A stretch of DNA of 43,605 nt from Actinomycetota bacterium (GTDB taxonomy: Bacteria > Actinomycetota > Acidimicrobiia > Acidimicrobiales > Ilumatobacteraceae), in assembly GCA_005805045.1 (NCBI GenBank), contig SYNW01000032.1, positions 1 to 43,605 on the forward strand, written 5' to 3'. Both the position numbers and the translations under genes were made by a program. Shown one piece after another: positions 3,679 to 23,062 of this stretch (positions within the stretch are counted from its first letter, which is position 1; each line of letters opens with the position of its first letter). Under the pieces are notes generated by a model that did no database searches, was not told the DNA's origin, and saw nothing but the letters and a program-made list of their open reading frames with translations.

Positions 3679-5588
3679 AGCAGAACTCCACGCAATAAAA
3701 ACCATGCCAAGACCAAAACTGCGCCGAGGCTAATCAAGAGCGCATAGGTGCGAACAAAACCGCTTTGCGCTCGACGCACGGAGCCGGCGATGCCGCTTAT
3801 TGATTCACCAACTCCGTTGACGATGCCGTCCACGATATTGTCGTCGATCCACGTAACGAAATTGAACGTCGTCGCTCCCGGGCCGGCAATGGCGCGACTC
3901 ACTGTCGCGTCATACTTCCAGGCTTGTTCAAGAATTTTTGGTTCAACAACTTTGAACTTGGCCTTGCCATAGCCGGCTATCGCAATCAATATGCCGGTCA
4001 CCGCGACAACGACGGCAAGCAGTAGCAATAAATACTTGTTCTGATAAGCCCAAGTTTTGCCAATATAAGCCTCTGATTCTTCGACCACTGGCGCCAGCCA
4101 ATGTTCTAAAAAATGCAGTTTCTTGCTGAACGGCAGCTGCATTGCGCCGCCGAATATCGAGAGCACCGACAAAACAAGCAGCGGAATCAACATCACTCGT
4201 GGGCTCTCATGCGGGGTGATATCGCCGTGCGCACCGTGCTCTTCACTGTGATCATTCCATCTCGCCTCACCGTAGAACACCATGATCACTTGACGCGTCA
4301 TGTAATAAGCGGTCAGCAGCGCGGTGACAATGCCGACAATGTATAGCGCCGGGCTTTTCGCAAAAACATAAAGCAAAATCTCGTCTTTTGACCAAAAGCC
4401 GGCAAATGGCGGCACGCCCGCAATCGCCAACCAGCCGATGATGAAAGTGAAACCAGTTATCGGCATGACCTTGCGCAATGCACCCATGCGTCGCATGTCT
4501 TGTTGATGATGCATGCCGTGAATCACCGAACCAGAACCCAAGAACAACAAAGCCTTAAAAAATGCGTGGGTCACCATGTGAAAAATTGCCGCGACATATG
4601 CGCCAGAGCCGATTGCTAAAAACATGAAACCGAGTTGCGAGACCGTGCTGTATGCCAAAACTTTTTTGATGTCGTTTTGGGCTACTGCGATAGTGGCCGC
4701 ATAAAGCGCCGTTGCAGCACCGACCACCGCGATAACGGTTGACGCCCAGTCGTAAGAAACATGCAGCACTGGATTCATTCGCGTCATCAAAAACACGCCA
4801 GAGGTAACCATCGTCGCCGCATGAATCAACGCGGATACTGGTGTTGGGCCTTCCATCGCATCGGGCAACCACAAATAGAGCGGCAACTGCGCGCTCTTGC
4901 CACAAGCACCCACGAACAACAACATCGCAATTGCTGTTGCCGTGACCGATGCCAGTTCGCCTCCGTGGGCAGCCTCGTTGATCGCCCCATAAGACAAGGA
5001 ACCGGCTGATGAAAATGCCAAGAACATTGCGGTCATCACACCGAAGTCGCCGATACGGTTGGTCACGAAAGCTTTTTTGCCGGCAACTGCCGCGCTGTCT
5101 CGAGTATGCCAGAACGAGATCAAGAAATAACTGCAGGCACCGACGCCCTCCCACCCCAAGAAAGTTACGAGCAAGTTTTCACCAAGCACAAGCATCAGCA
5201 TGCTGAATACAAATAAATTCAAGTAAAGAAAAAACTTCGAGAACTTTGCGTCGCCGTGCATGTATCCGATTGCATAAAGATGAATCAACGTAGAAATACC
5301 CGTAACAAAAAGCGCCATGACGATACTCAGGGGGTCGGCGAGTAACGCAAAGTCGACTTGCAAAGAGCCCACTGGCAACCACGAGAACAACACCTCGACA
5401 TGGGTGCGTTCTTCGGCTTCGAGACCGAGCATCTCGAAATAAACCATAACGGTAAGCAAAAATGCACCACCGGTGGCGAGCGTTGCCACCCAACCAGAGC
5501 GTGGGTCGCCAAACTTGCGACCTAGAACCAAGTTCAACATTGCCCCCGCGAGTGGCAACAACGGGATCAACCAGATCAGGTTCAACAT
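3675..5588 (-). CDS. nuoL: NADH-quinone oxidoreductase subunit L
   Basis: 637-aa antiporter-like subunit with the block SAQLPLYLWLPDAMEGPTPVSALIHAATMVTSGVFL and a long C-terminal extension with a terminal TM helix. Position is between nuoK and nuoM. Confidence 0.92.
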   Translation of the reverse strand: MLNLIWLIPLLPLAGAMLNLVLGRKFGDPRSGWVATLATGGAFLLTVMVYFEMLGLEAEERTHVEVLFSWLPVGSLQVDFALLADPLSIVMALFVTGISTLIHLYAIGYMHGDAKFSKFFLYLNLFVFSMLMLVLGENLLVTFLGWEGVGACSYFLISFWHTRDSAAVAGKKAFVTNRIGDFGVMTAMFLAFSSAGSLSYGAINEAAHGGELASVTATAIAMLLFVGACGKSAQLPLYLWLPDAMEGPTPVSALIHAATMVTSGVFLMTRMNPVLHVSYDWASTVIAVVGAATALYAATIAVAQNDIKKVLAYSTVSQLGFMFLAIGSGAYVAAIFHMVTHAFFKALLFLGSGSVIHGMHHQQDMRRMGALRKVMPITGFTFIIGWLAIAGVPPFAGFWSKDEILLYVFAKSPALYIVGIVTALLTAYYMTRQVIMVFYGEARWNDHSEEHGAHGDITPHESPRVMLIPLLVLSVLSIFGGAMQLPFSKKLHFLEHWLAPVVEESEAYIGKTWAYQNKYLLLLLAVVVAVTGILIAIAGYGKAKFKVVEPKILEQAWKYDATVSRAIAGPGATTFNFVTWIDDNIVDGIVNGVGESISGIAGSVRRAQSGFVRTYALLISLGAVLVLAWFLLRGVLL

Positions 5589-5590
5589 GA

Positions 5591-5911
5591 TCAGCCTTTT
5601 AGTTCTGCCAAATCATCGGTGGTAAGAGCCGCGCGATTGCGCATAATCGAAACGATGATCCCGAGACCAACCACGACTTCGGCAGCAGCCACCACCATCA
5701 CGAAGAGAACGACCGTTTGACCGTTGATGTCGTTTAGTTCACGTGCCAGAGTGACGAAACTCAAGTTCACCGCATTGAGCATTAGTTCGATGCACATGAA
5801 CATCACCAGGGGGTTCCTGCGCACGAGCACGCCCAAGGTGCCAATGGCAAACAAAACGGCGGCCAAAATCAAATACCAAGTTGCAGTTGGGGCCAAACTT
5901 AGCGAGATCAC
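5591..5911 (-). CDS. nuoK: NADH-quinone oxidoreductase subunit K
   Basis: 106-aa protein with three TM helices in the correct operon position. GTG start overlaps the nuoJ stop (GTGA). Confidence 0.88.
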
Positions 5912-6444
5912 TTTGCACCCAACTTTGCTTTGCGTGTCAACAACACGGTGCCGACCACAGCGATGACCAACAACACTGAAGTTACCTCGAACGCAACGAC
6001 GTATCGCGAAAAAATTGACTCGGCGAGTTGCACGGTGTTGGCATCAGAACCATTTTGCAAATCTGGCACATTGATGCCCGATCCCCGCTCGTTTATCTTC
6101 CCATTGCCGTCGACGATCGCCGCTACGAGAACGCCCAATAGTCCGAGGCTTGCAATGATCGCCAGTGGTCGTTGTGCCGTCAAAGGTTCGGTTCGCAGAT
6201 TCTCAACTCTGTCGACACCCAGCAACATAATCACGAACAAAAACAGAACCACGATCGCACCCGCATAGACGATGACTTGCACGGCTGCCAAAAAGTGGGC
6301 TTCTTGGGCGATAAATAAAACGGCGACACCAAACAGCGTCAAAACAAGACTCAATGCTGCGTGCACGGGATGCTTGCGCACGATGACACCCACGGCGCCC
6401 AACAAAATCATCAGCGCTGCACAAACGAAGACGAAAAACTCCAC
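5908..6444 (-). CDS. nuoJ: NADH-quinone oxidoreductase subunit J
   Basis: 178-aa membrane protein between nuoI and nuoK. GTG start lies directly after the nuoI stop. Confidence 0.85.
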
Positions 6445-8294: not shown

Positions 8295-10663
8295 TTGATC
8301 GGCTCAATTCGCACGTCTATGACATCGTTTGAAATGTTCAACAACGGCCGAATGTCTACGCCGGTGTGGTTGAACGGCAACCATGCCACACCGCGATGCA
8401 CACCATTGTGACTTTTTATCATTATCACGATATTCGTGCCTTCGGCGCCGACGCGAACGTTGGTCCCATCGACGACACCAATGCGCGCAAGATCAAGAGG
8501 ATTCACAAAAATCGCGGCATCGGTGATGATTCCTGCAAGCGATGGGCTTGAAACAGTCGACCCTGCCGAGTCATACATCGTGCGCGACACAACCAATCGA
8601 AGGTTGTACGTATTTCGATCGATGACTTTGCTCAGATTGCTGGAAATCGTCACCGGGGTTTCGCGCGCCATTAGCACCCCGTCACCATGGGTTGATTTGG
8701 CGTCGACACTTGGCGCAAACGCTGCAACGGTGCCGACGAGTTTCTCGCTGAGATCTTCAAGACTGGATACACCGATGTCGACGCCAAGGCTGATGCTCAA
8801 TTCTGTGGCGATCATCCAGTCAGGGCGCGAAGTGCCGCGCGGGGTGATCTTTTGTGCGACATTACTAATTCGACCTTCAAGATTCGTTGTCGTTCCATTT
8901 TTTTCACCATAAGCAGCGGCTGGTAAAACAACGTCTGCATTGCGATTTGAATCGTTGATCATCGTGTCGATGCTGATCAAGTTTTTGATTTGGGTAAATG
9001 CACGTTGCACGAGGCCAGAATCAGGCACGTCGGCCATCGGGTCTGCTCCAAGCAAAATCAAGCAATCAATCTTGCCTGCGGCTGCAGCATTCAAAATGTC
9101 GGTCGCATCACCTGAATTATTTTGCGGCGTCAACCCCGCCGCGATCGCCCCGCGCACGTTGCCACGGCGCAAAACTGGAAGCACTTTCACGCTTGGTGCC
9201 GCGATAAAAACTTCGGCTAGTGCTTGCAGCGTGAACATTTCGTTTTCTGCCAAATTAGGTCGACCAACAACCACGACGACTTGGCCGCGGGCAAGTTGCT
9301 CTTTCATCTCTGGCGTCGACAATGCTTCGCGCACGGCCCGCGCCTGGTGTCCTGGTTCGAAGCCAACGGTGCGCCACGCATGCGGGGTCAAACCAGAATC
9401 ATGGGCACTCACTTCGATGATTCGCGATTTACGTTTCTGCGCCGCATCTCGGACACGCAAATAAAGAACTGGCAACTCTTCTTTAAGGTCAGGAGCGAGC
9501 AAGATGATTGTGCTCGCGGCGCAAGTCTCATCGATCGTCGCCTGAGCAAGGTTGAAAACTTCGGGGCTCAAACCGTCACCGAACTGAGAATCACGCTGAT
9601 CAATGCCAAGTTTGTCGGCCAACATCGCCCAGGCAAATGCATCCTCATTCGTGCCACGAGCACCACCCAGGATCGCCACCGAATTTGCATTACCCGCCAA
9701 AGCGAGACGAATCATGCGAGCAGTGGTTTCAAGAGCAACAGACCAAGATGTTGCCACAAGTTCCGTACCGGTCTTGACTAGCGGCGTCGTCAAACGATCG
9801 GGCGAGTTCACCGACTCAAAGTTGTAACGACCGCGATCGCACAGCCACCCCCAATTCACGGGGTCGATATCCACGCCTTGATATCGCACGAGTTCATCGC
9901 GACTGCTTTGCACGACGGTTCGACAACCAACCGAACACGAAGTGCAGGTACTTTCCGTTTGTTCAAGATCCCACGGGCGCGCCTTAAATCGATAAGGCCT
10001 GGCCGTCAACGCACCCACGGGACAGATCTGCACGGTGTTGCCGGAGAAATATGAACTGAACGGCTCATCGGGAAATGTCAGGACCTGAGTGTCGTTGCCA
10101 CGGTTGGTGAACGTGATCAACGCATCACCCGCAACTTCGTCGGCGAACCGCGTGCATCGATCACACAAAATGCATCGCTCACGATCCAGGTAGACGATGT
10201 CGCTGATTGCGATTGGTTTTTCGTAGTGACGCTTTTCTTCGACGAATCGACTCTCGCCCGGGCCATGGCTGAACGCTTGATCTTGCAACGGACATTCGCC
10301 ACCCTTGTCGCAAACAGGACAATCAAGTGGATGATTCGCCAACAACAATTCGAGCACGCCCTCTTGGGCTTTTTTGACCGAGTCGGTTGTGGTGCGAACG
10401 ATCTGACCCTCGACCACAGGCGTCATACACGACACAACGATCATCGGCCCCCGTGGTGTTTCAACTTCGACAAGACACTGCCGACACATGCCCACCGATG
10501 ACATCCGCGGGTGATAACAGAATCTGGGGATGAAATCATCGGTTCGATCCGCCGCCGCAATAATCAACTCACCTTTTCGCGCCGCGACCGGTTTGTCATT
10601 GATCGTGATGTTGACGACATTTGGGTCGACAACACTCTCTTTGATTGGATCCATGATCGTCAT
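8291..10663 (-). CDS. nuoG: NADH-quinone oxidoreductase subunit G
   Basis: 790 aa. N-terminal 2Fe-2S region (CYHPRMSSVGMCRQCLVEV), HPLDCPVCDKGGECPLQD and CILCDRCTRF cluster motifs, then a molybdopterin-oxidoreductase-like body. ATGA overlap with nuoF. Confidence 0.93.
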   Translation of the reverse strand: MTIMDPIKESVVDPNVVNITINDKPVAARKGELIIAAADRTDDFIPRFCYHPRMSSVGMCRQCLVEVETPRGPMIVVSCMTPVVEGQIVRTTTDSVKKAQEGVLELLLANHPLDCPVCDKGGECPLQDQAFSHGPGESRFVEEKRHYEKPIAISDIVYLDRERCILCDRCTRFADEVAGDALITFTNRGNDTQVLTFPDEPFSSYFSGNTVQICPVGALTARPYRFKARPWDLEQTESTCTSCSVGCRTVVQSSRDELVRYQGVDIDPVNWGWLCDRGRYNFESVNSPDRLTTPLVKTGTELVATSWSVALETTARMIRLALAGNANSVAILGGARGTNEDAFAWAMLADKLGIDQRDSQFGDGLSPEVFNLAQATIDETCAASTIILLAPDLKEELPVLYLRVRDAAQKRKSRIIEVSAHDSGLTPHAWRTVGFEPGHQARAVREALSTPEMKEQLARGQVVVVVGRPNLAENEMFTLQALAEVFIAAPSVKVLPVLRRGNVRGAIAAGLTPQNNSGDATDILNAAAAGKIDCLILLGADPMADVPDSGLVQRAFTQIKNLISIDTMINDSNRNADVVLPAAAYGEKNGTTTNLEGRISNVAQKITPRGTSRPDWMIATELSISLGVDIGVSSLEDLSEKLVGTVAAFAPSVDAKSTHGDGVLMARETPVTISSNLSKVIDRNTYNLRLVVSRTMYDSAGSTVSSPSLAGIITDAAIFVNPLDLARIGVVDGTNVRVGAEGTNIVIMIKSHNGVHRGVAWLPFNHTGVDIRPLLNISNDVIDVRIEPIK

Positions 10664-12060
10664 GCCGACGCCCCGACTGCCGTAACCGGAATGGTCACGC
10701 GCTTTTTTACGCGGGCTTCAAACTCGCTTCTAAACAGAGTCAAAGCCGAATGCACCGGGGCAAATGCCGATGGCCCGACGAAACAAATCGTGGTCATCTT
10801 GTACGGAAACGGAACAGCCTTCAAACCTAATTCTTCATTGGCGGCATGCGGAAACGCACCTGGACAAATCATCGCCCCAACTTCGAGCAGTTGCTGCAAA
10901 TCTGCATCTGTACCGTCACCATCGACTACGCGGCGCAAGATTCTTTCAAGCCAAGTTCCACCCTCACGACACGGCGTGCATTTGCCGCACGACTCGTGTG
11001 CATAAAAATGGGTCAGCGTCAACGCGGCCGCCGGAATATCAGTCGTCTCGTCCATCACCATTACCGCACCCGAGCCGAGCATCGACCCAGCCGGTCCGAC
11101 TTGGCTGGCCTCAAACGGGAGATCAAGTTGATCGGGCGTGAACCACGGTGCAGAGCCACCACCCGGCACGAATGCTTTCAATGCGTTGTCATTGCGCATG
11201 CCACCGCAAAACTCTTGGCCATAAATCAAGTCGCGAAACGTCGTAGTGCCGTTGATGATTTCGTAGACGCCAGGTCGTTTGACATGACCCGAAACAGCAA
11301 CCATCCGCGTACCCGGTGATGTCTTCGTGCCAATCGCCGTATACGCGGCAACGCCATTATTCAACAACCACGGCAAGTTGGCAAGAGTCTCGACGTTATT
11401 CACGATCGTGGGCTGACCATAAAGACCGTTCGCCGCGGGGAAAAACGGCGGCTTGAGTCGTGGCATTCCGCGATTGCCTTCGAGGCTTTCAATCAGTGCC
11501 GTTTCTTCGCCTACGACATAAGCGCCTGCACCCCAATGCAAAATAATGTCGACCGAGAACTTAGAGCCCAAAATATTTTTGCCGATGTATCCGGCCTCAT
11601 ACGCCTCGTTCAGCGCGACAGCCACGCGCTCTTGGGCAACAGCCATCTCACCTCTTATATAAAGGAAGCATTGCGACAGACCCGCGGCATAACAAGCAAT
11701 CAGACAACCCTCAAGCAACTGATGCGGGTCGCGTTCCATCAACAAACGGTCTTTGTAGGTGCCGGGCTCGCTTTCGTCACCGTTGACGACCAGGTAGCGC
11801 GGCCAAACTTGCTGCGGTGTGAGCCCCCACTTGACGCCCGCCGGAAAACCAGCACCACCACGACCGAGCACCGTCGCACTTTTTACGTCTTCGTGGACTT
11901 CATTTGCTGGTCGGGACAAAGCCGCGCGCAAACCCTTGTATCCATCCGTTGCGAGATAACGCTCGAGGGTATACGAGTCGGCAAACTCAAATCGCGAAGT
12001 GACAATTTTTGGTCGATCTCCCGCCACGAAACCTGGCGCATGCACATATGTCTTGCTCAC
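10660..12060 (-). CDS. nuoF: NADH-quinone oxidoreductase subunit F (NADH/FMN-binding)
   Basis: Motifs GRGGAGFPAGVKW (FMN/NADH site) and ESCGKCTPCREG (N3 cluster). The track ORF runs up to 12306, but that extension lies inside nuoE. The GTG at 12058-12060 overlaps the nuoE TGA (GTGA) and gives a normal-length protein starting VSKTYVHAPGF. Confidence 0.9.
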   Translation of the reverse strand: MSKTYVHAPGFVAGDRPKIVTSRFEFADSYTLERYLATDGYKGLRAALSRPANEVHEDVKSATVLGRGGAGFPAGVKWGLTPQQVWPRYLVVNGDESEPGTYKDRLLMERDPHQLLEGCLIACYAAGLSQCFLYIRGEMAVAQERVAVALNEAYEAGYIGKNILGSKFSVDIILHWGAGAYVVGEETALIESLEGNRGMPRLKPPFFPAANGLYGQPTIVNNVETLANLPWLLNNGVAAYTAIGTKTSPGTRMVAVSGHVKRPGVYEIINGTTTFRDLIYGQEFCGGMRNDNALKAFVPGGGSAPWFTPDQLDLPFEASQVGPAGSMLGSGAVMVMDETTDIPAAALTLTHFYAHESCGKCTPCREGGTWLERILRRVVDGDGTDADLQQLLEVGAMICPGAFPHAANEELGLKAVPFPYKMTTICFVGPSAFAPVHSALTLFRSEFEARVKKRVTIPVTAVGASA

Positions 12061-15556: not shown

Positions 15557-16381
15557 TTAGCTCTTCGCTGGCGAACGTGAACCAACATCAGCACTTAGAT
15601 TCTTGCGCAAGCGCAGATCACGAGTGTGCAGCAATCGACAAAGCAACAAGAAAATGATCGTTGAACCAATCGTGATAAAAATTGACGGCTGACGCTTGGA
15701 GCCGAGATCGCGCAACATATATATGTATCGGCGAGGCTGAGTTTCATCGATTTCTGGTCGAGCGGGTGCACGACCCGGCTCGGTGCGCTGTGGCACGATC
15801 GATGCAACCTCGACTATTGAATAATGCGGATCATGAAAGAATGCCACGAAGTCGAGCGACTCGCTGATCTTCGGCCATCGTTCACCACCTTTGTCATAAA
15901 CGGCAACCGAGACATACTCACCAAGCGCAAACTCTTCTGCTTGATTTTGAATGATTTCATCGGCAGACGCAACTGCTTGACCACGTCGTGGATCGGACTC
16001 TTGCAACAACAACCATCCATCACCCTGCAAAGCAATGGATGCCGTAGCCGCGTCGGCAACTGCATCACCTGATGGTTGCATCGGCATCAAAATAATCTCC
16101 GCATCGTCCAACAAGTCCGGACTTCTGACGATGGTCGTCGGCTCGCCGGGCTGCCAAGTTGGAGCGCGACCCGTCAGGCCAATGCCATATATCCACCAAA
16201 TACTCCCCATAATCGCCATCCAACCAAAAAACCCGGCAACCACGACGAGAAACCCAAGTCGCGCGCCCAAATTCGTGCCAACCACCAAATAGGTACCGCC
16301 GATTAATACGCCAACCGAAATTGCAACAATAATGATGCCACGAAGTTGCGGTTCGAAATTTACGGCGAGCAGAGCGAGCAC
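15557..16381 (-). CDS. Membrane protein of unknown function (2 N-terminal TM, extracytoplasmic domain, C-terminal TM), last gene of the b6c-type module
   Basis: 274-aa ORF with hydrophobic helices IIIVAISVGVLIGGTYLVV, LGFLVVVAGFFGWMAIMGSIWWIYGIG and SIFITIGSTIIFLLLC. I recognise no catalytic motif. It sits 2 nt after the cytochrome c gene and 5 nt before nuoA. Confidence 0.6.
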   Translation of the reverse strand: MLALLAVNFEPQLRGIIIVAISVGVLIGGTYLVVGTNLGARLGFLVVVAGFFGWMAIMGSIWWIYGIGLTGRAPTWQPGEPTTIVRSPDLLDDAEIILMPMQPSGDAVADAATASIALQGDGWLLLQESDPRRGQAVASADEIIQNQAEEFALGEYVSVAVYDKGGERWPKISESLDFVAFFHDPHYSIVEVASIVPQRTEPGRAPARPEIDETQPRRYIYMLRDLGSKRQPSIFITIGSTIIFLLLCRLLHTRDLRLRKNLSADVGSRSPAKS

Positions 16382-16383
16382 TC

Positions 16384-17424
16384 TTAGAGACCTCTCACAT
16401 AATCAATAACGGCGACAATTTGCTCATCTGTCAATACCAAACCAAAAGCTGGCATTCGACCCGAACCTTGACCTTGCTGACCGTACCTCTTGCCGAGTTC
16501 GCTTCCGCCCTTGATGAACTCAATCATTTCGTCACGTTGTGGAAACTGTCTGACTGCTGATCCACCGGTTAAGTTCGGACCGAAAGCGCCACCGCCCGTA
16601 ATTTCTGGCTCACCGTACGACCAACCCTTGGTATGACAGCGCGCACATGAATAATTTCCGCTGCCTAAATCTAAATTGAACAACGCTTCTCCGACAGATG
16701 CGTAAGTCCCCGCCTTGACAAGTCGCTCGGCCTCGGCTTGGATCTCTCGTTGTTTTTCTTCGGGCAATTTGCCATTTTCGTCACGCGGAATTTCAATGCT
16801 CTTGACATATTCAATGACCGTTTGAATTTGCTGTTCGTTCATCGGGCCGCCACCGACCAAACCCCATGCCGACATCGGCGAGAAAGGTCGACCATATTCA
16901 AGGATGAATCGAACTTCTTCTTCGCTGTAACGATAGAAAACCGTGTTGATTGCTGGTGCCTTCCAATTGACTTGTTTTACTTGACCAGTCTTTGGATCTG
17001 AAATCGCATAAGACGCGACGCCGCCACCACCCTTCATGCCACCGTGGCAACCGGCGCAGTTATAACCGCCATCGGCCGTCGTGGAAAACAACCCGGTACC
17101 CCAAGTTTCAAATTGGTGTTGAAATTCTTTTTCGGCACCGACCATGCGACCGGGTTCAAGAATCCAATAGAGCGGCAGCGCAATCGTCGTGACGGCAAGA
17201 CACAACAGACCAATCAACTGCGTACGCTGAATTTTTTCGCCCTCAAGTCGCTCGTCGTCATAATAAGGTTTGCGGTTTGCGGCAAGTTTGATCTCTGCAC
17301 CAATCTCGCGCTTCGACGAGCGCAGATTGCCCAGGCCGTAGATAACCCAACCCAAAACCGAAACAAGCAAAATCACCCAGGCGATCGTGGTGGTTGTATC
17401 GGCGAGCATCACTGCGAGATTCAC
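16384..17424 (-). CDS. Membrane-anchored dihaem c-type cytochrome
   Basis: Two CxxCH motifs (NCAGCHGG and SCARCHTKG) and two N-terminal TM helices. GTG start abuts the Rieske stop; an ATG at 17409 is an alternative start. Confidence 0.85.
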   Translation of the reverse strand: MNLAVMLADTTTTIAWVILLVSVLGWVIYGLGNLRSSKREIGAEIKLAANRKPYYDDERLEGEKIQRTQLIGLLCLAVTTIALPLYWILEPGRMVGAEKEFQHQFETWGTGLFSTTADGGYNCAGCHGGMKGGGGVASYAISDPKTGQVKQVNWKAPAINTVFYRYSEEEVRFILEYGRPFSPMSAWGLVGGGPMNEQQIQTVIEYVKSIEIPRDENGKLPEEKQREIQAEAERLVKAGTYASVGEALFNLDLGSGNYSCARCHTKGWSYGEPEITGGGAFGPNLTGGSAVRQFPQRDEMIEFIKGGSELGKRYGQQGQGSGRMPAFGLVLTDEQIVAVIDYVRGL

Positions 17425-18276
17425 TTAGTGTCCACCCGTTCCGCCGACACAGTGGGGACCTTCTGCTTCTTGACCAGATGTGTTCGTTCCAATAGGTGGA
17501 CCACCAAAAACTGTGCCCGTATCGATGACAACCATTCCGTTATTCACTGAAACTCCAAAACGATCCATGCCTCGCGGTGCTGGTCCACCTTTTTTTTCAC
17601 CAACACGGTTGTATTGCGACCCATGGCACGGACATTCAAACCATTGCGATGTTTTGCATTCAGGCACACGACAACCAAGATGTGGACACTTCTGATACAG
17701 CGCGACTATTCCAGAGGTCATCCCGCTGAACACTGGTGCTTGCCCGGCATAAATTGCTTCAGCCTTGGAAATCGATTCTTTTGGATATTCGGTTACCCAT
17801 GATCGAGCCTCAGGCAAATATAGGAAGCCCTTGTTGGCGCGAATCTTGCCGACAACCTCTTCGAGTTTTCCTGCGTTGATTTTCGAACCGAAGCCACCGT
17901 CGGCGCCTTTCCACAAAAAGGCGATTAGCGCGGCGGCGAAACCACCAAGGCTCGCGCTCATCAAAGTCACTGTGGCGCGATTCAAAAATGCTCGACGCGA
18001 TTCATCAACTGCTTCTCGGTCTGGCATAACCCACGGTTCAATTTCGGCGGGCGGTATGACCGCAACTGCGGTGCTCCGCGAAGCCGAGGCTTCAGCCTCA
18101 ACATCGCGACGCGCGTTGCGTGATGACTTTTTCGCATCGCGATCACGCTTGCGAGTCTCACGCGACAACACACCCACGCCGCTCATGTCGGAACGCCGAC
18201 TTGCCGTGAGCACAACGCCCAAGCCGAGCACGGCAAGAACAGCAATCGCAATGGTGATGATGGTCGTCGAGTTCAT
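17425..18276 (-). CDS. Rieske [2Fe-2S] iron-sulfur protein
   Basis: Rieske boxes CPHLGC and CPCHGSQY. N-terminal TM helix, then an internal SRRAFLN twin-arginine motif before a second hydrophobic helix. Confidence 0.9.
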   Translation of the reverse strand: MNSTTIITIAIAVLAVLGLGVVLTASRRSDMSGVGVLSRETRKRDRDAKKSSRNARRDVEAEASASRSTAVAVIPPAEIEPWVMPDREAVDESRRAFLNRATVTLMSASLGGFAAALIAFLWKGADGGFGSKINAGKLEEVVGKIRANKGFLYLPEARSWVTEYPKESISKAEAIYAGQAPVFSGMTSGIVALYQKCPHLGCRVPECKTSQWFECPCHGSQYNRVGEKKGGPAPRGMDRFGVSVNNGMVVIDTGTVFGGPPIGTNTSGQEAEGPHCVGGTGGH

Positions 18277-18291
18277 TTGAGTTTTATCCGA

Positions 18292-19011
18292 TCACAATTC
18301 GAAGAAGATACCTTCACGCCAAGGAAAGACGAAGTTGAAACCGGGCCCCCTGAAGAAAGAGCCAATAATTACGAGCACCGCCCAGAACATTAAGTGCACT
18401 GTAAATAAACCGGTCATGAACTTTCTGTCTTCTGGACGATTTGACTCGTTGCGATCCATGTACGGGGCGAACATCAGCACAATCAGACCCATGCCCGGAA
18501 TCGTCACACCAGCAATCATCGGGTGGAACATCGTCAGCAGTTCTTGCAATCCGAGAAAGTACCAAGGTGCTTTCGAAGGATTGGGTGTCTGATTGAAGTT
18601 TGCCGCCTGCAACAGCGGGGCGTTCACGAACCACGAAAACACAAAAGTAAACGCGGTGCACGCAAGCGCGGCAACAAACTCGATGCCCAACAAGTGTGGC
18701 CAGGTGTGCACCTTGTCAACTGGCACCGCTTTGACGTCTTGAATTGAACCTGATTTGACGACCGTCAACAAGCGTTGCGTGTGACCACCAGGTCCGGCCC
18801 CGAATGGCACGCCACTATTTGCTGGCGCTGCGACCACTACGCTGCCGACTTTTTCGGCAACTGCAACCGCACCCTTGTTTCGATTTAGCAAATCGCCCGA
18901 AATTCGCGAGTCGTCAGCCGCTGGCGCCGGCGCGGCTCCGCCCGCATCGGCGGCTGCTTTTTCGCGCGCTTCTTGAGCGCGCTTCAAAAGATGTTCTGGA
19001 ATGCCGGCCAT
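18292..19011 (-). CDS. Cytochrome b C-terminal half / subunit IV-like protein with about 100-aa cytoplasmic N-terminal extension
   Basis: Three TM helices and a PEWY-equivalent segment PNPSKAPWYFLGLQELL. Its ATG shares 1 nt with the stop of the upstream cytochrome b6-like gene (TGATG). Confidence 0.8.
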   Translation of the reverse strand: MAGIPEHLLKRAQEAREKAAADAGGAAPAPAADDSRISGDLLNRNKGAVAVAEKVGSVVVAAPANSGVPFGAGPGGHTQRLLTVVKSGSIQDVKAVPVDKVHTWPHLLGIEFVAALACTAFTFVFSWFVNAPLLQAANFNQTPNPSKAPWYFLGLQELLTMFHPMIAGVTIPGMGLIVLMFAPYMDRNESNRPEDRKFMTGLFTVHLMFWAVLVIIGSFFRGPGFNFVFPWREGIFFEL

Positions 19012-19796
19012 CAGAGGGGTCCTGAAATTCCGCCGTCTTTACGCACGCGCCAGAAATGGATCGCGAGGAAGATGACCGTTACGAATGGGAACAACAAAAC
19101 ATGCAACACATACCAACGCAACAAAGTTTCTGGACCAATTTCAACACCGCCCAGCAAAACAAAACGAACTTGCGAGCCAATAACTGGTGAGTAGCCCATC
19201 ATGTTGGTACCCACGGTTACTGCCCACAGCGCGAGTTGATCCCACGGCAACAAATAACCTGTGAATGAAAGCAGCAGCGTCAAAGTCAAGAGAATCACGC
19301 CGATTACCCAGTTGAACTCGCGTGGTGCTTTGTATGCACCGTGATAAAAGACTCGCGCCATGTGCAAAAATACGGTGAGCACCATCAAATGCGCGCCCCA
19401 ACGGTGCATATTGCGCACCATCAAACCGAAAGTCACCGAAGTATGCAGTGACTGAATATCTTGCCACGCGTTAGCCGATGTCGGGCGGTAAAAGAACATC
19501 AAGAAAATGCCGGTGATGGTCAGCAAAATAAACAAAAAGAAGCTCAAGCCTCCGAGACAAAGCGTGTAACTGACCTTTACCGCATGGCGCTTTACTTTGA
19601 CCGGATGCAAGTGATAGAGCACAGAGTTCATGACGACATAAGAACGATTTCTCGGCGAGTCCGAATAGCCCTTGCGGAAGATCGAACCTGGCCTGAAAAT
19701 CGAGTTCCAGGCTTGGCTCGACTGCGTCGTCTCATTGAGTTTGGTCACGCGCTGTTTAATCGTCGGACGAGATTTCTGCTCGATCATCTTTACCAT
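19011..19796 (-). CDS. Cytochrome b6-like protein (N-terminal four-helix half of cytochrome b)
   Basis: Helix-B His pair NMHRWGAHLMVLTVFLH. Helix-D His pair LHVLLFPFVTVIFLAIH has 14 residues between the histidines (b6 spacing). A Cys lies in TLCLGG at the position of the haem ci/cn-binding Cys. A GGAG ribosome-binding site precedes the ATG. Confidence 0.88.
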   Translation of the reverse strand: MVKMIEQKSRPTIKQRVTKLNETTQSSQAWNSIFRPGSIFRKGYSDSPRNRSYVVMNSVLYHLHPVKVKRHAVKVSYTLCLGGLSFFLFILLTITGIFLMFFYRPTSANAWQDIQSLHTSVTFGLMVRNMHRWGAHLMVLTVFLHMARVFYHGAYKAPREFNWVIGVILLTLTLLLSFTGYLLPWDQLALWAVTVGTNMMGYSPVIGSQVRFVLLGGVEIGPETLLRWYVLHVLLFPFVTVIFLAIHFWRVRKDGGISGPL

Positions 19797-19812
19797 TTAG
19801 TTTTCTCCGTTC

Positions 19813-20226
19813 CTAAAATCGCATGCCGTACGAATAGCCGTGGTTATTGGTTCGCATATGAGTTTCGCCCGTGGCTGGCGCAACCCCAACTTTGCCGAGA
19901 ATTATCACACCGGTTGGACAACGATCGACGCACAACGCACAACGTGTGCAAACATCATCATCAATAATGAAAACAACTTTGTCTGAAGGGTCTTCACCGG
20001 GCATCTCGGTGCCGCTTGACTCTGAGATTGCGTCCGGGCTGACCATGAAAATGCACTTCCACGGGCAAATGTCAACGCAACCTTCACACATGATGCACTC
20101 TGATTGATCGATGTGGATGAACTGCTTGGGCTTAACCGCCTTGTTCAAATACTCGGCATCTACCTCGACGAGTTGATAGTCGTCGGTATAAGGCATCATC
20201 GGCGGGTTTGCGTCGGTTTTTGCCAT
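19813..20226 (-). CDS. 2x[4Fe-4S] ferredoxin-like protein, probably cytoplasmic
   Basis: Motifs CIMCEGCVDICP and CTRCALCVDRCP. No signal peptide, TM helix or twin-arginine motif. It lies 16 nt upstream of the cytochrome b6-like gene. Confidence 0.85.
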   Translation of the reverse strand: MAKTDANPPMMPYTDDYQLVEVDAEYLNKAVKPKQFIHIDQSECIMCEGCVDICPWKCIFMVSPDAISESSGTEMPGEDPSDKVVFIIDDDVCTRCALCVDRCPTGVIILGKVGVAPATGETHMRTNNHGYSYGMRF

Positions 20227-20229
20227 CGC

Positions 20230-20706
20230 TCAACTCTTCTTCGTCAACGGACGACCATAACTAGACGAAACAACTTCTTTAGCTGTGACCACCCCGCGCT
20301 TTTGCCACCAACTGAACAGATAGATCATCAGGCCAATATAGAAAACGTGGATGACCACGACGATGATGTCACGAATTGCTTCGTAACTAATGGTGATCGG
20401 AAAGCTTCCACCAACGGTGTCGGACTTCAAAATGTTGAACGGCCCGTAGACGAGTTTGTCTTTTCGCCAACCCAATTCTTTGTCGGCGTGGTCGATGAAT
20501 TGGTGCGGCACAACACCGAACGCAAGAAACAATACGAGGAAGATGTAAGCGGATCCGAGCATCGCTTCACCCCAAGTTGCCTTTCGATCAAACTTTCGAC
20601 GTTGGCCGATCGGAATGACCACAAGACTCATGGCGGTGGTGACTACAAACGAAAACAGGAACGCTTGATTGACCCCTGGCCACCTGAGAATGTCTATTGC
20701 GAGCAT
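20230..20706 (-). CDS. Small membrane protein of unknown function, first gene of the b6c-type module
   Basis: 158-aa ORF with about 3 TM helices (FLFSFVVTTAMSLVVIPI, AYIFLVLFLAFGVV, IIVVVIHVFYIGLMIYLF). ATG start; its stop is 3 nt before the ferredoxin start. Confidence 0.6.
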   Translation of the reverse strand: MLAIDILRWPGVNQAFLFSFVVTTAMSLVVIPIGQRRKFDRKATWGEAMLGSAYIFLVLFLAFGVVPHQFIDHADKELGWRKDKLVYGPFNILKSDTVGGSFPITISYEAIRDIIVVVIHVFYIGLMIYLFSWWQKRGVVTAKEVVSSSYGRPLTKKS

Positions 20707-20944: not shown

Positions 20945-21769
20945 GTGGCTGGAATACCCGAGCATCTACTTAAGCGGGCTCAAGAAGCACGCGACAAAGC
21001 AGCCGGCAAAACTCCTGCCGCGGATGCCGGTGAATCGACGCCAAATCTTCCCGCTAAAACATCTGAAGCCAAACCTGTGCCGGCCGCCCAAGTTGCGAGT
21101 GCTCCGCCACCACCGCCCCCAGATCCAAGTTACGTAGTCGCCGCCAACACACGAAAAAAGATTCCATTTTGGGCAATGGCCACTTTGAGTCTCCTGCCTT
21201 TTTGGGCACTGTTGTATGCCTTGTCGGTCAAGCCTCAAGAAAAAACGGTTGAAGGTCCGCTTGCAATAGGCGCAGCAGTTTACGGAACGTGCGCAGGATG
21301 TCACGGTGTGGCCGGAGCCGGTGGCGCTGGACGCGCTCTGCACCAAGGTGAAGTCTTGAAAACTTTCCCAAAGATCGAAGACATGTTGAACTTCGTCTAC
21401 ACAGGTTCGCAAGCGTTTGTTTCTGCCGAGATCAAAATTTATGGCGACCCTAATCGCGAAGGTGGGGCGCACGAAACGCTTTCATACAACGGCAACCCGA
21501 TGCCGCAACAAGGAGAAAAATACGGTGGCGGTCTGACCGACGCAGAAATTCTCGGAGTCGTATGCCATGAAAGATACGAAATCGGTGGTGCCGACCAAGA
21601 GAGCGAAGAATGGAAGAGCGAGTTCGAGATGTGGTGCTCGCCTGAGTCTGAAATATTTCAAGGTCTCGAAAACGGATCAGTGAACTACGACAATCTTGCT
21701 GAAACATTTGCAGCGTTGCCGATGCCGCCGACGAATGTCAGCACAGACCCCCGCCCCTCAGGAAAATAG
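20945..21769 (+). CDS. Membrane-anchored monohaem c-type cytochrome
   Basis: Single CxxCH (TCAGCHG) with a downstream NGNPMPQQG candidate Met ligand. It has a cytoplasmic N-terminus, a Pro/Ala-rich linker and one TM helix (IPFWAMATLSLLPFWALLYAL). GTG start is preceded by AAGGAG. Confidence 0.8.
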   Translation: MAGIPEHLLKRAQEARDKAAGKTPAADAGESTPNLPAKTSEAKPVPAAQVASAPPPPPPDPSYVVAANTRKKIPFWAMATLSLLPFWALLYALSVKPQEKTVEGPLAIGAAVYGTCAGCHGVAGAGGAGRALHQGEVLKTFPKIEDMLNFVYTGSQAFVSAEIKIYGDPNREGGAHETLSYNGNPMPQQGEKYGGGLTDAEILGVVCHERYEIGGADQESEEWKSEFEMWCSPESEIFQGLENGSVNYDNLAETFAALPMPPTNVSTDPRPSGK

Positions 21770-21832: not shown

Positions 21833-23062
21833 GTGCTCGTCATCGGTGGAGGGCCAGCCGGTGCAGCTGCCGGATTTTGGTTGGCGAAACTTGGACACGA
21901 TGTAACGATTGTCGAGCGCAAAAAGTTTCCACGTGAAAAAACCTGTGGTGACGGTCTTACACCGCGTGCCGTGAAACAGCTGGACGACATGGGGCTGAGC
22001 ACAGGGCTTGAAAAATTTCATCGCTACGAGGGTCTTCGCGCAACTGCCCATGGCATCGCTCTCGAACTGCAATGGCCGACTCATCCGATTTACCCGCGCT
22101 ACGGCTATGTTGTGCGGCGCCGTGAACTTGACATGATGGTCGCTCACAACGCGCGAAATGCCGGGGCAAAACTTCTTGAAGAACATGAAGCCGCGGCGCC
22201 GATCACGGAAAAGGGTTGCGTTCGTGGCGCAATGATCACCAACAAAAAAGACGACACGACCGTTGCGCTTCACGCCGACTATGTGGTCATCGCCGATGGT
22301 GCGAACTCTCGCTTCGGCCGAAGCATGGGCACCTCGCGAGAGAGGGCTTGGCCCTACGGCACTGCGATTCGCACATACTGGCAGAGTCCAAGGCACAAAG
22401 AACCGTGGATCGAATCGGCGCTGGACGTAAAGGACCGCAACGGAAAGTCAATGCCGGGATACGGATGGATATTTCCGGTCGGCGACGGAACCATAAATAT
22501 CGGTGTCGGATTACTGTCGACATTCAAGAACTTCAAAGATGTCAACACATCTCACCTGCTCGACTCATATGCGCACATGGTCGCCGACAAATGGGAGATT
22601 GATCCGACCAAACCAGAGTGCAAAGCCACCAGCGGAAAGATTCCGATGGGCGGATCAGTCGGGCCAAAAGTTGGACCTACCCACATCGTGATTGGCGATG
22701 CTGCCGGCAGCGTCAACCCATTTAATGGTGAGGGCATCGACTATGCCTACGAGACTGCGCATATGGCTGCCGAGGTGATCCATGATGCGTTGATCTCGGG
22801 CGATGCGACGGCATTGAAGCGTTACGAGCAACTAATCGAAGACGAGTACGGTCAGTATTTTAAAGTGGCGCGACTTTTTGCGCGAATAATTGGCAAACCA
22901 ATTTTGATGCGCGAACTTTCGCGAGTGGGTATTCACAGCCGAACTTTGATGGAGTGGGTGTTACGAATCATGGCCAACTTGTTGCGACCAGACGAGATTG
23001 GGCCGGCCGAAGCCGCATACAAGGCGGCCGCAGCAATCGTCCGTCTATATCCCAACGCCTAA
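21833..23062 (+). CDS. Geranylgeranyl reductase family flavoprotein (menaquinone side-chain reductase-like)
   Basis: N-terminal FAD fold VLVIGGGPAGAAAGFWLAKLGHDVTIVERKKFPREKTCGDGLTP and about 409 aa in length. GTG is the only start available after the upstream in-frame stop. Confidence 0.8.
   Translation: MLVIGGGPAGAAAGFWLAKLGHDVTIVERKKFPREKTCGDGLTPRAVKQLDDMGLSTGLEKFHRYEGLRATAHGIALELQWPTHPIYPRYGYVVRRRELDMMVAHNARNAGAKLLEEHEAAAPITEKGCVRGAMITNKKDDTTVALHADYVVIADGANSRFGRSMGTSRERAWPYGTAIRTYWQSPRHKEPWIESALDVKDRNGKSMPGYGWIFPVGDGTINIGVGLLSTFKNFKDVNTSHLLDSYAHMVADKWEIDPTKPECKATSGKIPMGGSVGPKVGPTHIVIGDAAGSVNPFNGEGIDYAYETAHMAAEVIHDALISGDATALKRYEQLIEDEYGQYFKVARLFARIIGKPILMRELSRVGIHSRTLMEWVLRIMANLLRPDEIGPAEAAYKAAAAIVRLYPNA

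Follow-up and report, generated by a model that had tools for sequence, protein, structure and literature searches.

The question raised by this locus is whether a split, cytochrome b6-type Rieske/cytochrome b module, which stands where an actinobacterial QcrCAB complex would be expected, is a genuine respiratory enzyme and, if so, of which kind. The window, that is, the whole stretch of DNA that was analysed, comprises positions 1-43,605 of contig SYNW01000032.1 (assembly GCA_005805045.1) and comes from a freshwater actinobacterium of the class Acidimicrobiia (Ilumatobacteraceae). Open reading frame (ORF) calls in the window revealed seven closely packed genes on the minus strand, running from 20706 to 15557 with intergenic gaps of 3, 16, −1, 15, 0, and 2 nucleotides. 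They encode, in this order, a membrane protein (MemA), a 2[4Fe-4S] ferredoxin, a cytochrome b6-like protein, a subunit IV-like protein, a Rieske [2Fe-2S] protein, a dihaem cytochrome c and a second membrane protein (MemB). We consider it likely that this cluster specifies the respiratory complex III of Acidimicrobiia and that the enzyme, as a b6c-type quinol:cytochrome c oxidoreductase, belongs to the APWY clade of cytochromes b (probably subfamily G).

The gene for the cytochrome b6-like protein (19796-19011, minus strand) encodes 261 amino acids with four helices, and only domains of the N-terminal half of cytochrome b (PF00033 and PF13631) were matched by it. In the translation, the helix-B histidines H131 and H145 have 13 residues between them and the helix-D histidines H232 and H247 have 14; in cytochrome b of the bc1 type, the helix-D histidines are spaced by 13 residues. 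The alignment with cytochrome b6 is free of gaps, including the helix-D interval, up to a common C-terminal motif (RK.GISGPL). The only cysteine of the protein, C80, lies in the sequence TLCLGG (a CxGG motif; codon 19557-19559, minus strand) and pairs, in the alignment with PDB sequences, with Cys35 of spinach and Chlamydomonas cytochrome b6. This residue is thus predicted to bind haem cn/ci covalently. An earlier note on this DNA had made the same reading of the ORF as a four-helix half with b6-type spacing and an aligned haem cn/ci cysteine, and each of these points was confirmed.

In order to assess conservation, a scan of one genome per GTDB species was carried out, which found an orthologue of the b6-like protein in at least 588 genomes, essentially all of them Acidimicrobiales. 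The locus statistics given here are drawn from the best 80 of these genomes (n = 77 where subunit IV is counted). Both TLCLGG and the 14-residue helix-D spacing were invariant (80/80 orthologues), so that the lack of a conserved cysteine, which the earlier note had named as an objection to its own reading, was not observed. With 82-99% identity among orthologues (median 86%), the b6-like protein is the most conserved product of the cluster, and it carries a conserved N-terminal extension of about 55-70 residues. A further b6-like gene, 83% identical and with TLCLGG intact, was found at 10001-10786 of locus L073, from an Ilumatobacteraceae metagenome-assembled genome (MAG), and is accompanied by none of the remaining genes of the cluster; it represents an orphan paralogue or a misassembly.

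The next gene (19011-18292, minus strand) supplies the second half of the cytochrome b, as had been proposed. Its product of 239 amino acids, with three hydrophobic helices, matches the cytochrome b C-terminal/PetD half only (PF00032, residues 137-218) and contains SKAPWYFLGLQELL. It has no CxxCH motif, so it is not fused to a cytochrome c. About 105 residues precede the first helix and form a cytoplasmic N-terminal extension, consistent with the separate domain of about 100 residues described before. At the Qo site, the sequence APWY (A148-Y151; 18559-18570, minus strand, as read from the translation and alignment numbering) replaces PEWY or PDWY, and SKAPWYF was kept in 74 of the 77 subunit IV orthologues. 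The protein is 37% identical to the product of the equivalent gene of a Chloroflexi MAG.

The stop codon of the b6-like gene and the start codon of the subunit IV gene share 1 nucleotide (TGATG; junction cTGATGg). It is extremely improbable that the split arose from one long cytochrome b gene through a frameshift or an assembly error. Relatives with one fused gene at this locus would have suggested such an artefact; however, the two halves occurred in one reading frame in 0 of 77 Acidimicrobiales loci from independent genomes, a count that refutes the artefact and supports the earlier view of the split as genuine. A few fused database proteins do exist, but they join the ferredoxin to the b6-like protein and not the latter to subunit IV. 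Furthermore, the TGATG overlap is clean, subunit IV has a conserved N-terminal motif of its own, a Chloroflexi relative shows the identical 1-nucleotide overlap arrangement, and independent freshwater metagenomes contained 87-95% of the 31-letter words sampled from this region.

We placed the proteins by their scores against family models and PDB sequences and by the motifs of the nearest representatives, which gives a similarity ranking and not a tree. The b6-like protein scored 116 bits against the NCBIfam model bc1_QcrB_actin (NF050120; cutoff 500), and the Rieske protein 22 bits against QcrA_actin (NF050121; cutoff 275). Both therefore fall outside the actinobacterial QcrB/QcrA families, and a position within the QcrB clade, which would have spoken against the earlier note, was not found. 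Among PDB sequences, the b6-like protein scored highest with cytochrome b6 (169 bits), followed by proteobacterial cytochrome b (116 bits) and mycobacterial and corynebacterial QcrB (about 83-87 bits). Among the family models, the only one passed by the b6-like protein was the Geobacter ExtP equivalog (305 bits; cutoff 290). The b6 family model PRK03735 was not passed (210 bits; cutoff 325), subunit IV failed the ExtQ model (57 bits; cutoff 150), and scores against the SoxC model were far below its cutoff.

An exhaustive search of 1.84 billion cluster representatives returned 8575 relatives of the b6-like protein. Those from outside Acidimicrobiales had 42-60% identity, and the nearest nameable ones among them were two sequences, from Chloroflexi and Planctomycetes. 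Many of the outside relatives are long fused forms, among which APWY was found in 27 of 40 and CxGG in only 2 of 40. The affinity to Firmicutes and heliobacteria that had been proposed for the module was not borne out, since its Qo motif is APWY instead of PDWY or PEWY and its nearest named relatives are those from Chloroflexi and Planctomycetes.

These features place the proteins, by sequence, in the "APWY clade" of cytochrome b named by Kao and Hunte (2014; PMC4122944), in which CxGG occurs, most commonly in the context WCMGG. In that study, five of 618 actinobacterial cytochromes b were split, namely those of Rubrobacteridae and of Ilumatobacter coccineum strain YM16-304 (Acidimicrobidae); the five were members of either the PEWY-cyt c clade or the APWY clade, and the long QcrB was described as characteristic of Actinobacteridae (PMC4122944). 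Our literature search on the complex III of Acidimicrobiia and of Ilumatobacter retrieved this paper alone. Subfamily G of Dibrova et al. (2017) is a taxonomically mixed group of mostly short, CxGG-bearing cytochromes b that co-occur with cytoplasmic NAD(P)-binding FeS oxidoreductases, e.g., in anammox bacteria (PMC5600118). Judging from the two descriptions, the APWY clade is probably the same group as subfamily G (Dibrova et al., 2013/2017). The type was, then, already recognised from genomes in 2014, and its discovery here is incremental. In public records, some Acidimicrobiales orthologues are named "selenite/tellurite reduction operon b-type cytochrome ExtP" (P0033, P0052), and the Joint Genome Institute (JGI) names some "bacillus type"; both names are at odds with the gene context.

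Almost all of the best 80 genomes were labelled Acidimicrobiales, Ilumatobacteraceae or acIV and came from lakes, rivers and soils; the few labelled otherwise (e.g., Bifidobacterium or Gammaproteobacteria) probably reflect binning or naming errors. The synteny comparison across related genomes suggested in the earlier note showed that the order of eight genes from memA to nuoA, all on one strand, was colinear in 61 of the 61 loci holding all eight. The module had been presented as an unexpected exception to the actinobacterial QcrCAB arrangement. This part of the earlier note did not hold, because the split form is the normal state in Acidimicrobiia, with at least 588 genomes, and Kao and Hunte (2014) had reported it. 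The arrangement observed here is, therefore, real and conserved, and the split b6-type complex is the norm of the class.

The gene order downstream of subunit IV is also as previously described, a Rieske gene (18276-17425, minus strand; 283 amino acids, PF00355) being followed by that of a dihaem cytochrome c with two N-terminal helices. The Rieske protein starts with an extra N-terminal helix, followed by a charged loop, a twin-arginine-like SRRAFLN sequence and a second helix. Its cluster-binding boxes are CPHLGC and CPCHGSQY, kept as CPHLGC in 71 and as CxCHGSQY in 64 of 73 orthologues, whose median identity is 63%. A box II with Ser and Tyr, such as CPCHGSQY, is associated with high-potential clusters. 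The best NCBIfam matches of this protein were PetC models of the b6f complex, and the best PDB matches were two chains described as "similar to Rieske", followed by b6f Rieske proteins.

The dihaem cytochrome c (17424-16384, minus strand; 346 amino acids, with PF13442/PF00034 matched twice) shows CAGCH at residue 123, CARCH at residue 260 and two predicted hydrophobic helices at its N-terminus. Two CxxCH motifs were present in 63 of 67 orthologues, and no sequence relative was found in the PDB, solved QcrC chains included. A second cytochrome c gene (20945-21769, plus strand) is transcribed divergently from the cluster and encodes a membrane-anchored monohaem protein of 274 amino acids (PF00034) with one helix and CAGCH at residue 116; its position was conserved in 68 loci.

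Subunit IV and this monohaem cytochrome c have a cytoplasmic N-terminal motif in common, (M)TEIPEHLLKR[AS]xxAR. In the window, its core IPEHLLKRA is encoded at 18976-19002 (minus strand) in subunit IV, with a degenerate second copy at 18877-18903, and at 20954-20980 (plus strand) in the cytochrome. The motif was found in 73 of 77 subunit IV orthologues and in 68 of 69 monohaem cytochromes c, and two or more copies, often in tandem, were present in 50 of the 77 subunit IV proteins. No other protein encoded in the 80 loci carries it, and five further ORFs that match it look like copies of the same two genes that were split by frameshifts. Since the two copies in the window are nearly identical in DNA, some RNA contigs join position 19018 to position 20949, which lie on opposite strands.

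The ferredoxin gene (20226-19813, minus strand) lies directly upstream of the b6-like gene and encodes 137 amino acids that match the Fer4 families. The protein has two CxxCxxCxxxCP motifs with a long insert between them and a C-terminal tail, HGY[GAS]YGMR[LF]; both motifs and the tail are kept in the orthologues, and with a median identity of 80% it ranks second in conservation within the cluster. No hydrophobic helix was predicted and no signal peptide was evident on reading; therefore, the protein should be cytoplasmic. In the PDB, single Fer4 domains of polyferredoxins matched it with 17-27 bits.

Closer relatives of this ferredoxin were found at the C-terminus of larger flavoproteins. In a Chloroflexi locus (L081), a GltD-like FeS flavoprotein of 482 amino acids (4553-6001; Fer4_20, Pyr_redox_2, NAD_binding_8, and Fer4_7) is encoded directly upstream of a b6-like gene, the order being FeS flavoprotein, b6-like protein (with a 1-nucleotide start overlap), subunit IV-like protein, Rieske protein, and cytochrome c. 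In a metagenome contig (L083, 4692-6530), a protein of 612 amino acids of the same kind is encoded upstream of a Rieske-cytochrome b module. The ferredoxin of the window was 44% (E 1e-17) and 37% (E 5e-15) identical to such C-terminal, long-insert 2[4Fe-4S] modules. [quoted passage not shown] P0004, a singleton metagenome protein of 377 amino acids, joins the ferredoxin, without its C-terminal tail, cleanly and in frame to the b6-like protein; an AlphaFold2 model of P0004, made for ferredoxin docking, was of low confidence (mean predicted local distance difference test, pLDDT, 52.9; predicted template modelling score, pTM, 0.30). Two other apparent fusions, P0016 and P0024, were dropped as evidence, as their Arg/Pro-rich linkers look like out-of-frame translation.

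The genes at both ends of the cluster encode membrane proteins of no known family. The first, memA (20706-20230, minus strand; 158 amino acids, three predicted hydrophobic helices), had no Pfam, NCBIfam or PDB sequence match and was located upstream of the ferredoxin gene in 76 loci, with a median identity of 63%. The last, memB (16381-15557, minus strand; 274 amino acids), encodes a protein in which an extramembrane domain of about 160 residues lies between N-terminal helices and one C-terminal helix. It likewise had no match in Pfam, NCBIfam or the PDB. A search with MemB returned 2172 homologues, and the best 120 of these were unnamed or "hypothetical protein"; the family was seen only in Acidimicrobiia-type sequences, and 87 residues were invariant across 35 sequences. 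The AlphaFold2 model of MemB was of low confidence (mean pLDDT 56.5).

Downstream of memB, after 5 nucleotides, nuoA begins (15551-15075, minus strand), identified by PF00507 and NuoA models. It is the first of a string of ORFs on the same strand that extends down to about position 662, the next three of which read as NuoB/C/D-like, and memB was followed by nuoA in all 61 complete loci. Contigs from freshwater metatranscriptomes of related populations covered the whole cluster and spanned the memB/nuoA, the subunit IV/b6, and the dihaem cytochrome c/Rieske/subunit IV junctions. Contig depth, a weak measure, peaked over the ferredoxin and b6 genes. A scan for consensus promoters and terminators in the window gave no interpretable match. 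Collectively, the contigs and the gene order suggest that the complex III-like cluster and nuo (complex I) are co-transcribed as one very long respiratory operon.

Among the systems with which the module can be compared, the APWY clade is the closest. It shares the split four-helix cytochrome b plus subunit IV, the APWY motif and CxGG on helix A, as well as scattered relatives in Chloroflexi, Planctomycetes and delta-Proteobacteria and frequent partner genes for cytoplasmic FeS proteins. In contrast to other members, the window has TLCLGG, a 137-residue ferredoxin lacking an NAD(P)/FAD domain, memA and memB, and a run into nuo. In the anammox and Chloroflexi complexes with GltD-like NAD(P)/FAD/FeS subunits, the FeS gene also lies directly upstream of that for cytochrome b, and its long-insert 2[4Fe-4S] module is 37-44% identical to the ferredoxin of the window. 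The NAD(P)/FAD-binding part is absent in the window, and a direct NAD(P)H link is therefore unlikely. The ExtOPQ proteins of Geobacter sulfurreducens (Rieske protein, cytochrome b, and membrane protein, encoded in extHIJKLMNOPQS) belong to the same clade, and the ExtP model was passed; however, the ExtQ model was not, and the cluster of the window lacks the porin ExtI, the rhodanese ExtH and the multihaem cytochromes ExtKL/M/N/S.

The cytochrome b6f complex (PetB, PetD, PetC) is the best solved relative, with the same 14-residue spacing, the Cys35-aligned cysteine and GISGPL, and with a Rieske box II, CPCHGSQYN, that we take to be an exact match to spinach PetC. It differs in having cytochrome f, in whose place the window has the dihaem cytochrome c, and PEWY where the window has APWY; the window also shows no recognisable PetG/L/M/N, has N-terminal extensions on the b6-like protein and subunit IV, and comes from a non-photosynthetic host. 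The b6c complexes of Firmicutes and heliobacteria (Bacillus QcrABC, Heliobacterium PetABCD) share the split b6 plus subunit IV, CxGG, and a Gram-positive, menaquinone-type host. Haem ci has been shown experimentally in both groups, and heliobacteria have a dihaem cytochrome c as in the window. Nevertheless, their Qo motif is PDWY or PEWY, and Bacillus has its subunit IV joined to a monohaem cytochrome c. Finally, the actinobacterial QcrCAB complex (Mycobacterium, Corynebacterium, Streptomyces) comes from the same phylum, has more than one membrane helix in its Rieske protein and also uses a dihaem cytochrome c as Rieske acceptor, a feature that suggests direct delivery to the oxidase. In contrast, its QcrB is one protein of about 540 residues, its QcrC has a C-terminal and not an N-terminal anchor, and it is adjoined by ctaE, which is no neighbour of the cluster of the window.

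On the basis of these similarities, a working scheme can be proposed. Quinol, presumably menaquinol, would be oxidised at a Qo site (APWY) that the b6-like protein builds together with subunit IV. One electron would pass to the Rieske cluster, with its b6f-like CPCHGSQY box, and from there to the membrane-anchored dihaem cytochrome c, which would deliver it to an oxidase, with or without the divergently encoded monohaem cytochrome c as an intermediate. The second electron would cross the membrane through haems bL and bH (H131/H145 and H232/H247) and could then reach a third haem (cn/ci), putatively attached covalently to Cys80 at the quinone-reduction site. The haems of the n-side may have the ferredoxin as a partner in electron exchange.

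Several points weigh against this assignment. Both the function and the direction of electron flow are extrapolated from b6f and bc1 complexes. With a proline as the Qo motif's second residue, the carboxylate of the PEWY/PDWY enzymes is gone. Menaquinone is expected in Actinobacteria, and a Rieske box of the high-potential type sits oddly with it. No terminal oxidase gene is present within the 43.6-kb window. The metatranscriptome contigs are assembled, come from related populations, and could include DNA. Synteny and conservation are the only grounds on which the ferredoxin, MemA and MemB are counted as putative subunits. As of 2014, APWY-clade enzymes were biochemically uncharacterised and haem ci binding in them needed experimental proof, and Geobacter relatives were proposed to run in reverse or to belong to metal/selenite reduction clusters (PMC4122944).

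These last proposals lead to a different role for the complex, which might not be the main quinol:cytochrome c reductase but might belong to another chain or run in another direction, an idea put forward for other members of the APWY clade. Periplasmic donors or cytoplasmic ferredoxin could, for instance, feed the quinone pool, or electrons could be split between cytochrome c and a low-potential cytoplasmic acceptor via the ferredoxin. Such a role is in line with the Geobacter APWY relatives, of which some are encoded in the ext cluster linked to selenite/tellurite and Fe(III) and others beside p-cresol methylhydroxylase, with a reversed Q cycle proposed. It is also in line with the NAD(P)/FAD FeS oxidoreductases encoded in related operons, with the strong conservation of a ferredoxin homologous to the C-terminal module of those oxidoreductases, and with a Qo motif devoid of the carboxylate. 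However, the cluster encodes no NAD(P)/FAD domain, multihaem cytochrome, porin or substrate dehydrogenase; its partners (dihaem cytochrome c, monohaem cytochrome c, and complex I) are the set of an ordinary aerobic chain; and it is universal in aerobic Acidimicrobiales of fresh waters and soils. We thus regard a role of this kind as unlikely.

It is also conceivable, and in our opinion quite improbable, that the cluster encodes a second, auxiliary Rieske/cytochrome b complex, with a canonical qcrCAB-ctaE elsewhere in the genome doing the main work. The presence of several Rieske/cytochrome b complexes in one organism is documented (PMC4122944, PMC5600118), and the related MAG mentioned above has an orphan extra b6-like gene (L073). 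In contrast, the long QcrB is characteristic of Actinobacteridae and the split form is found in deep-branching subclasses (PMC4122944), no qcr or cta gene was found among the ORFs of the 43.6-kb window, and a core enzyme would agree with the strong conservation of the cluster, with its RNA coverage and with what appears to be an operon shared with nuo.

Within the preferred reading, i.e., a b6c-type complex III, a more specific arrangement can be conceived, which we put forward as a speculation of rather low probability. The complex might be "ferredoxin-capped", with the 2[4Fe-4S] subunit wired to haem bH/cn and with MemA, MemB and the IPEHLLKR tails fastening the whole complex physically to its partner cytochrome c or to complex I. 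The NAD(P)/FeS oxidoreductase arm of subfamily G might then be the ancestor or a descendant of the 2[4Fe-4S] subunit. If true, such a cap would, in a non-photosynthetic organism, connect a low-potential carrier of the cytoplasm directly with the quinone-reduction site. To our knowledge, a route of this type has long been postulated for ferredoxin-dependent cyclic flow through b6f and has never been demonstrated structurally.

The surroundings of the cluster match its assignment to an actinobacterium, which had been based on neighbouring genes: Rex, RsiG-like, GT4 glycosyltransferase and GlnR genes were verified, together with glutamine synthetases, and the closest genomes were MAGs of Acidimicrobiales/Ilumatobacteraceae. 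A gene for a FAD-dependent reductase (21833-23062, plus strand; PF01494) adjoins that of the monohaem cytochrome c and is kept as a neighbour in many loci. Its product, which we take from its sequence pattern to be geranylgeranyl-reductase-like, might saturate the side chain of menaquinone, as a MenJ-like enzyme.

Lakes, soils, and wastewater are rich in Acidimicrobiia (the acIV lineage, Ilumatobacteraceae, and relatives of Microthrix), a class whose respiratory chain is usually modelled by analogy on that of Mycobacterium or Corynebacterium. The locus points to a complex III of a different, b6-like lineage, members of which have apparently never been purified, and, because of this difference, inhibitor sensitivities, supercomplex models and automated names such as "ExtP" or "Bacillus-type" would be unsafe to transfer. 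Some value beyond the known type comes from the ferredoxin module, from the connection with nuo and from the N-terminal motif that two proteins have in common. Cultured relatives such as Ilumatobacter are a tractable aerobic source for the first biochemistry of the APWY clade, and their enzyme could show whether haem binding by the CxGG cysteine extends beyond phototrophs and Firmicutes.

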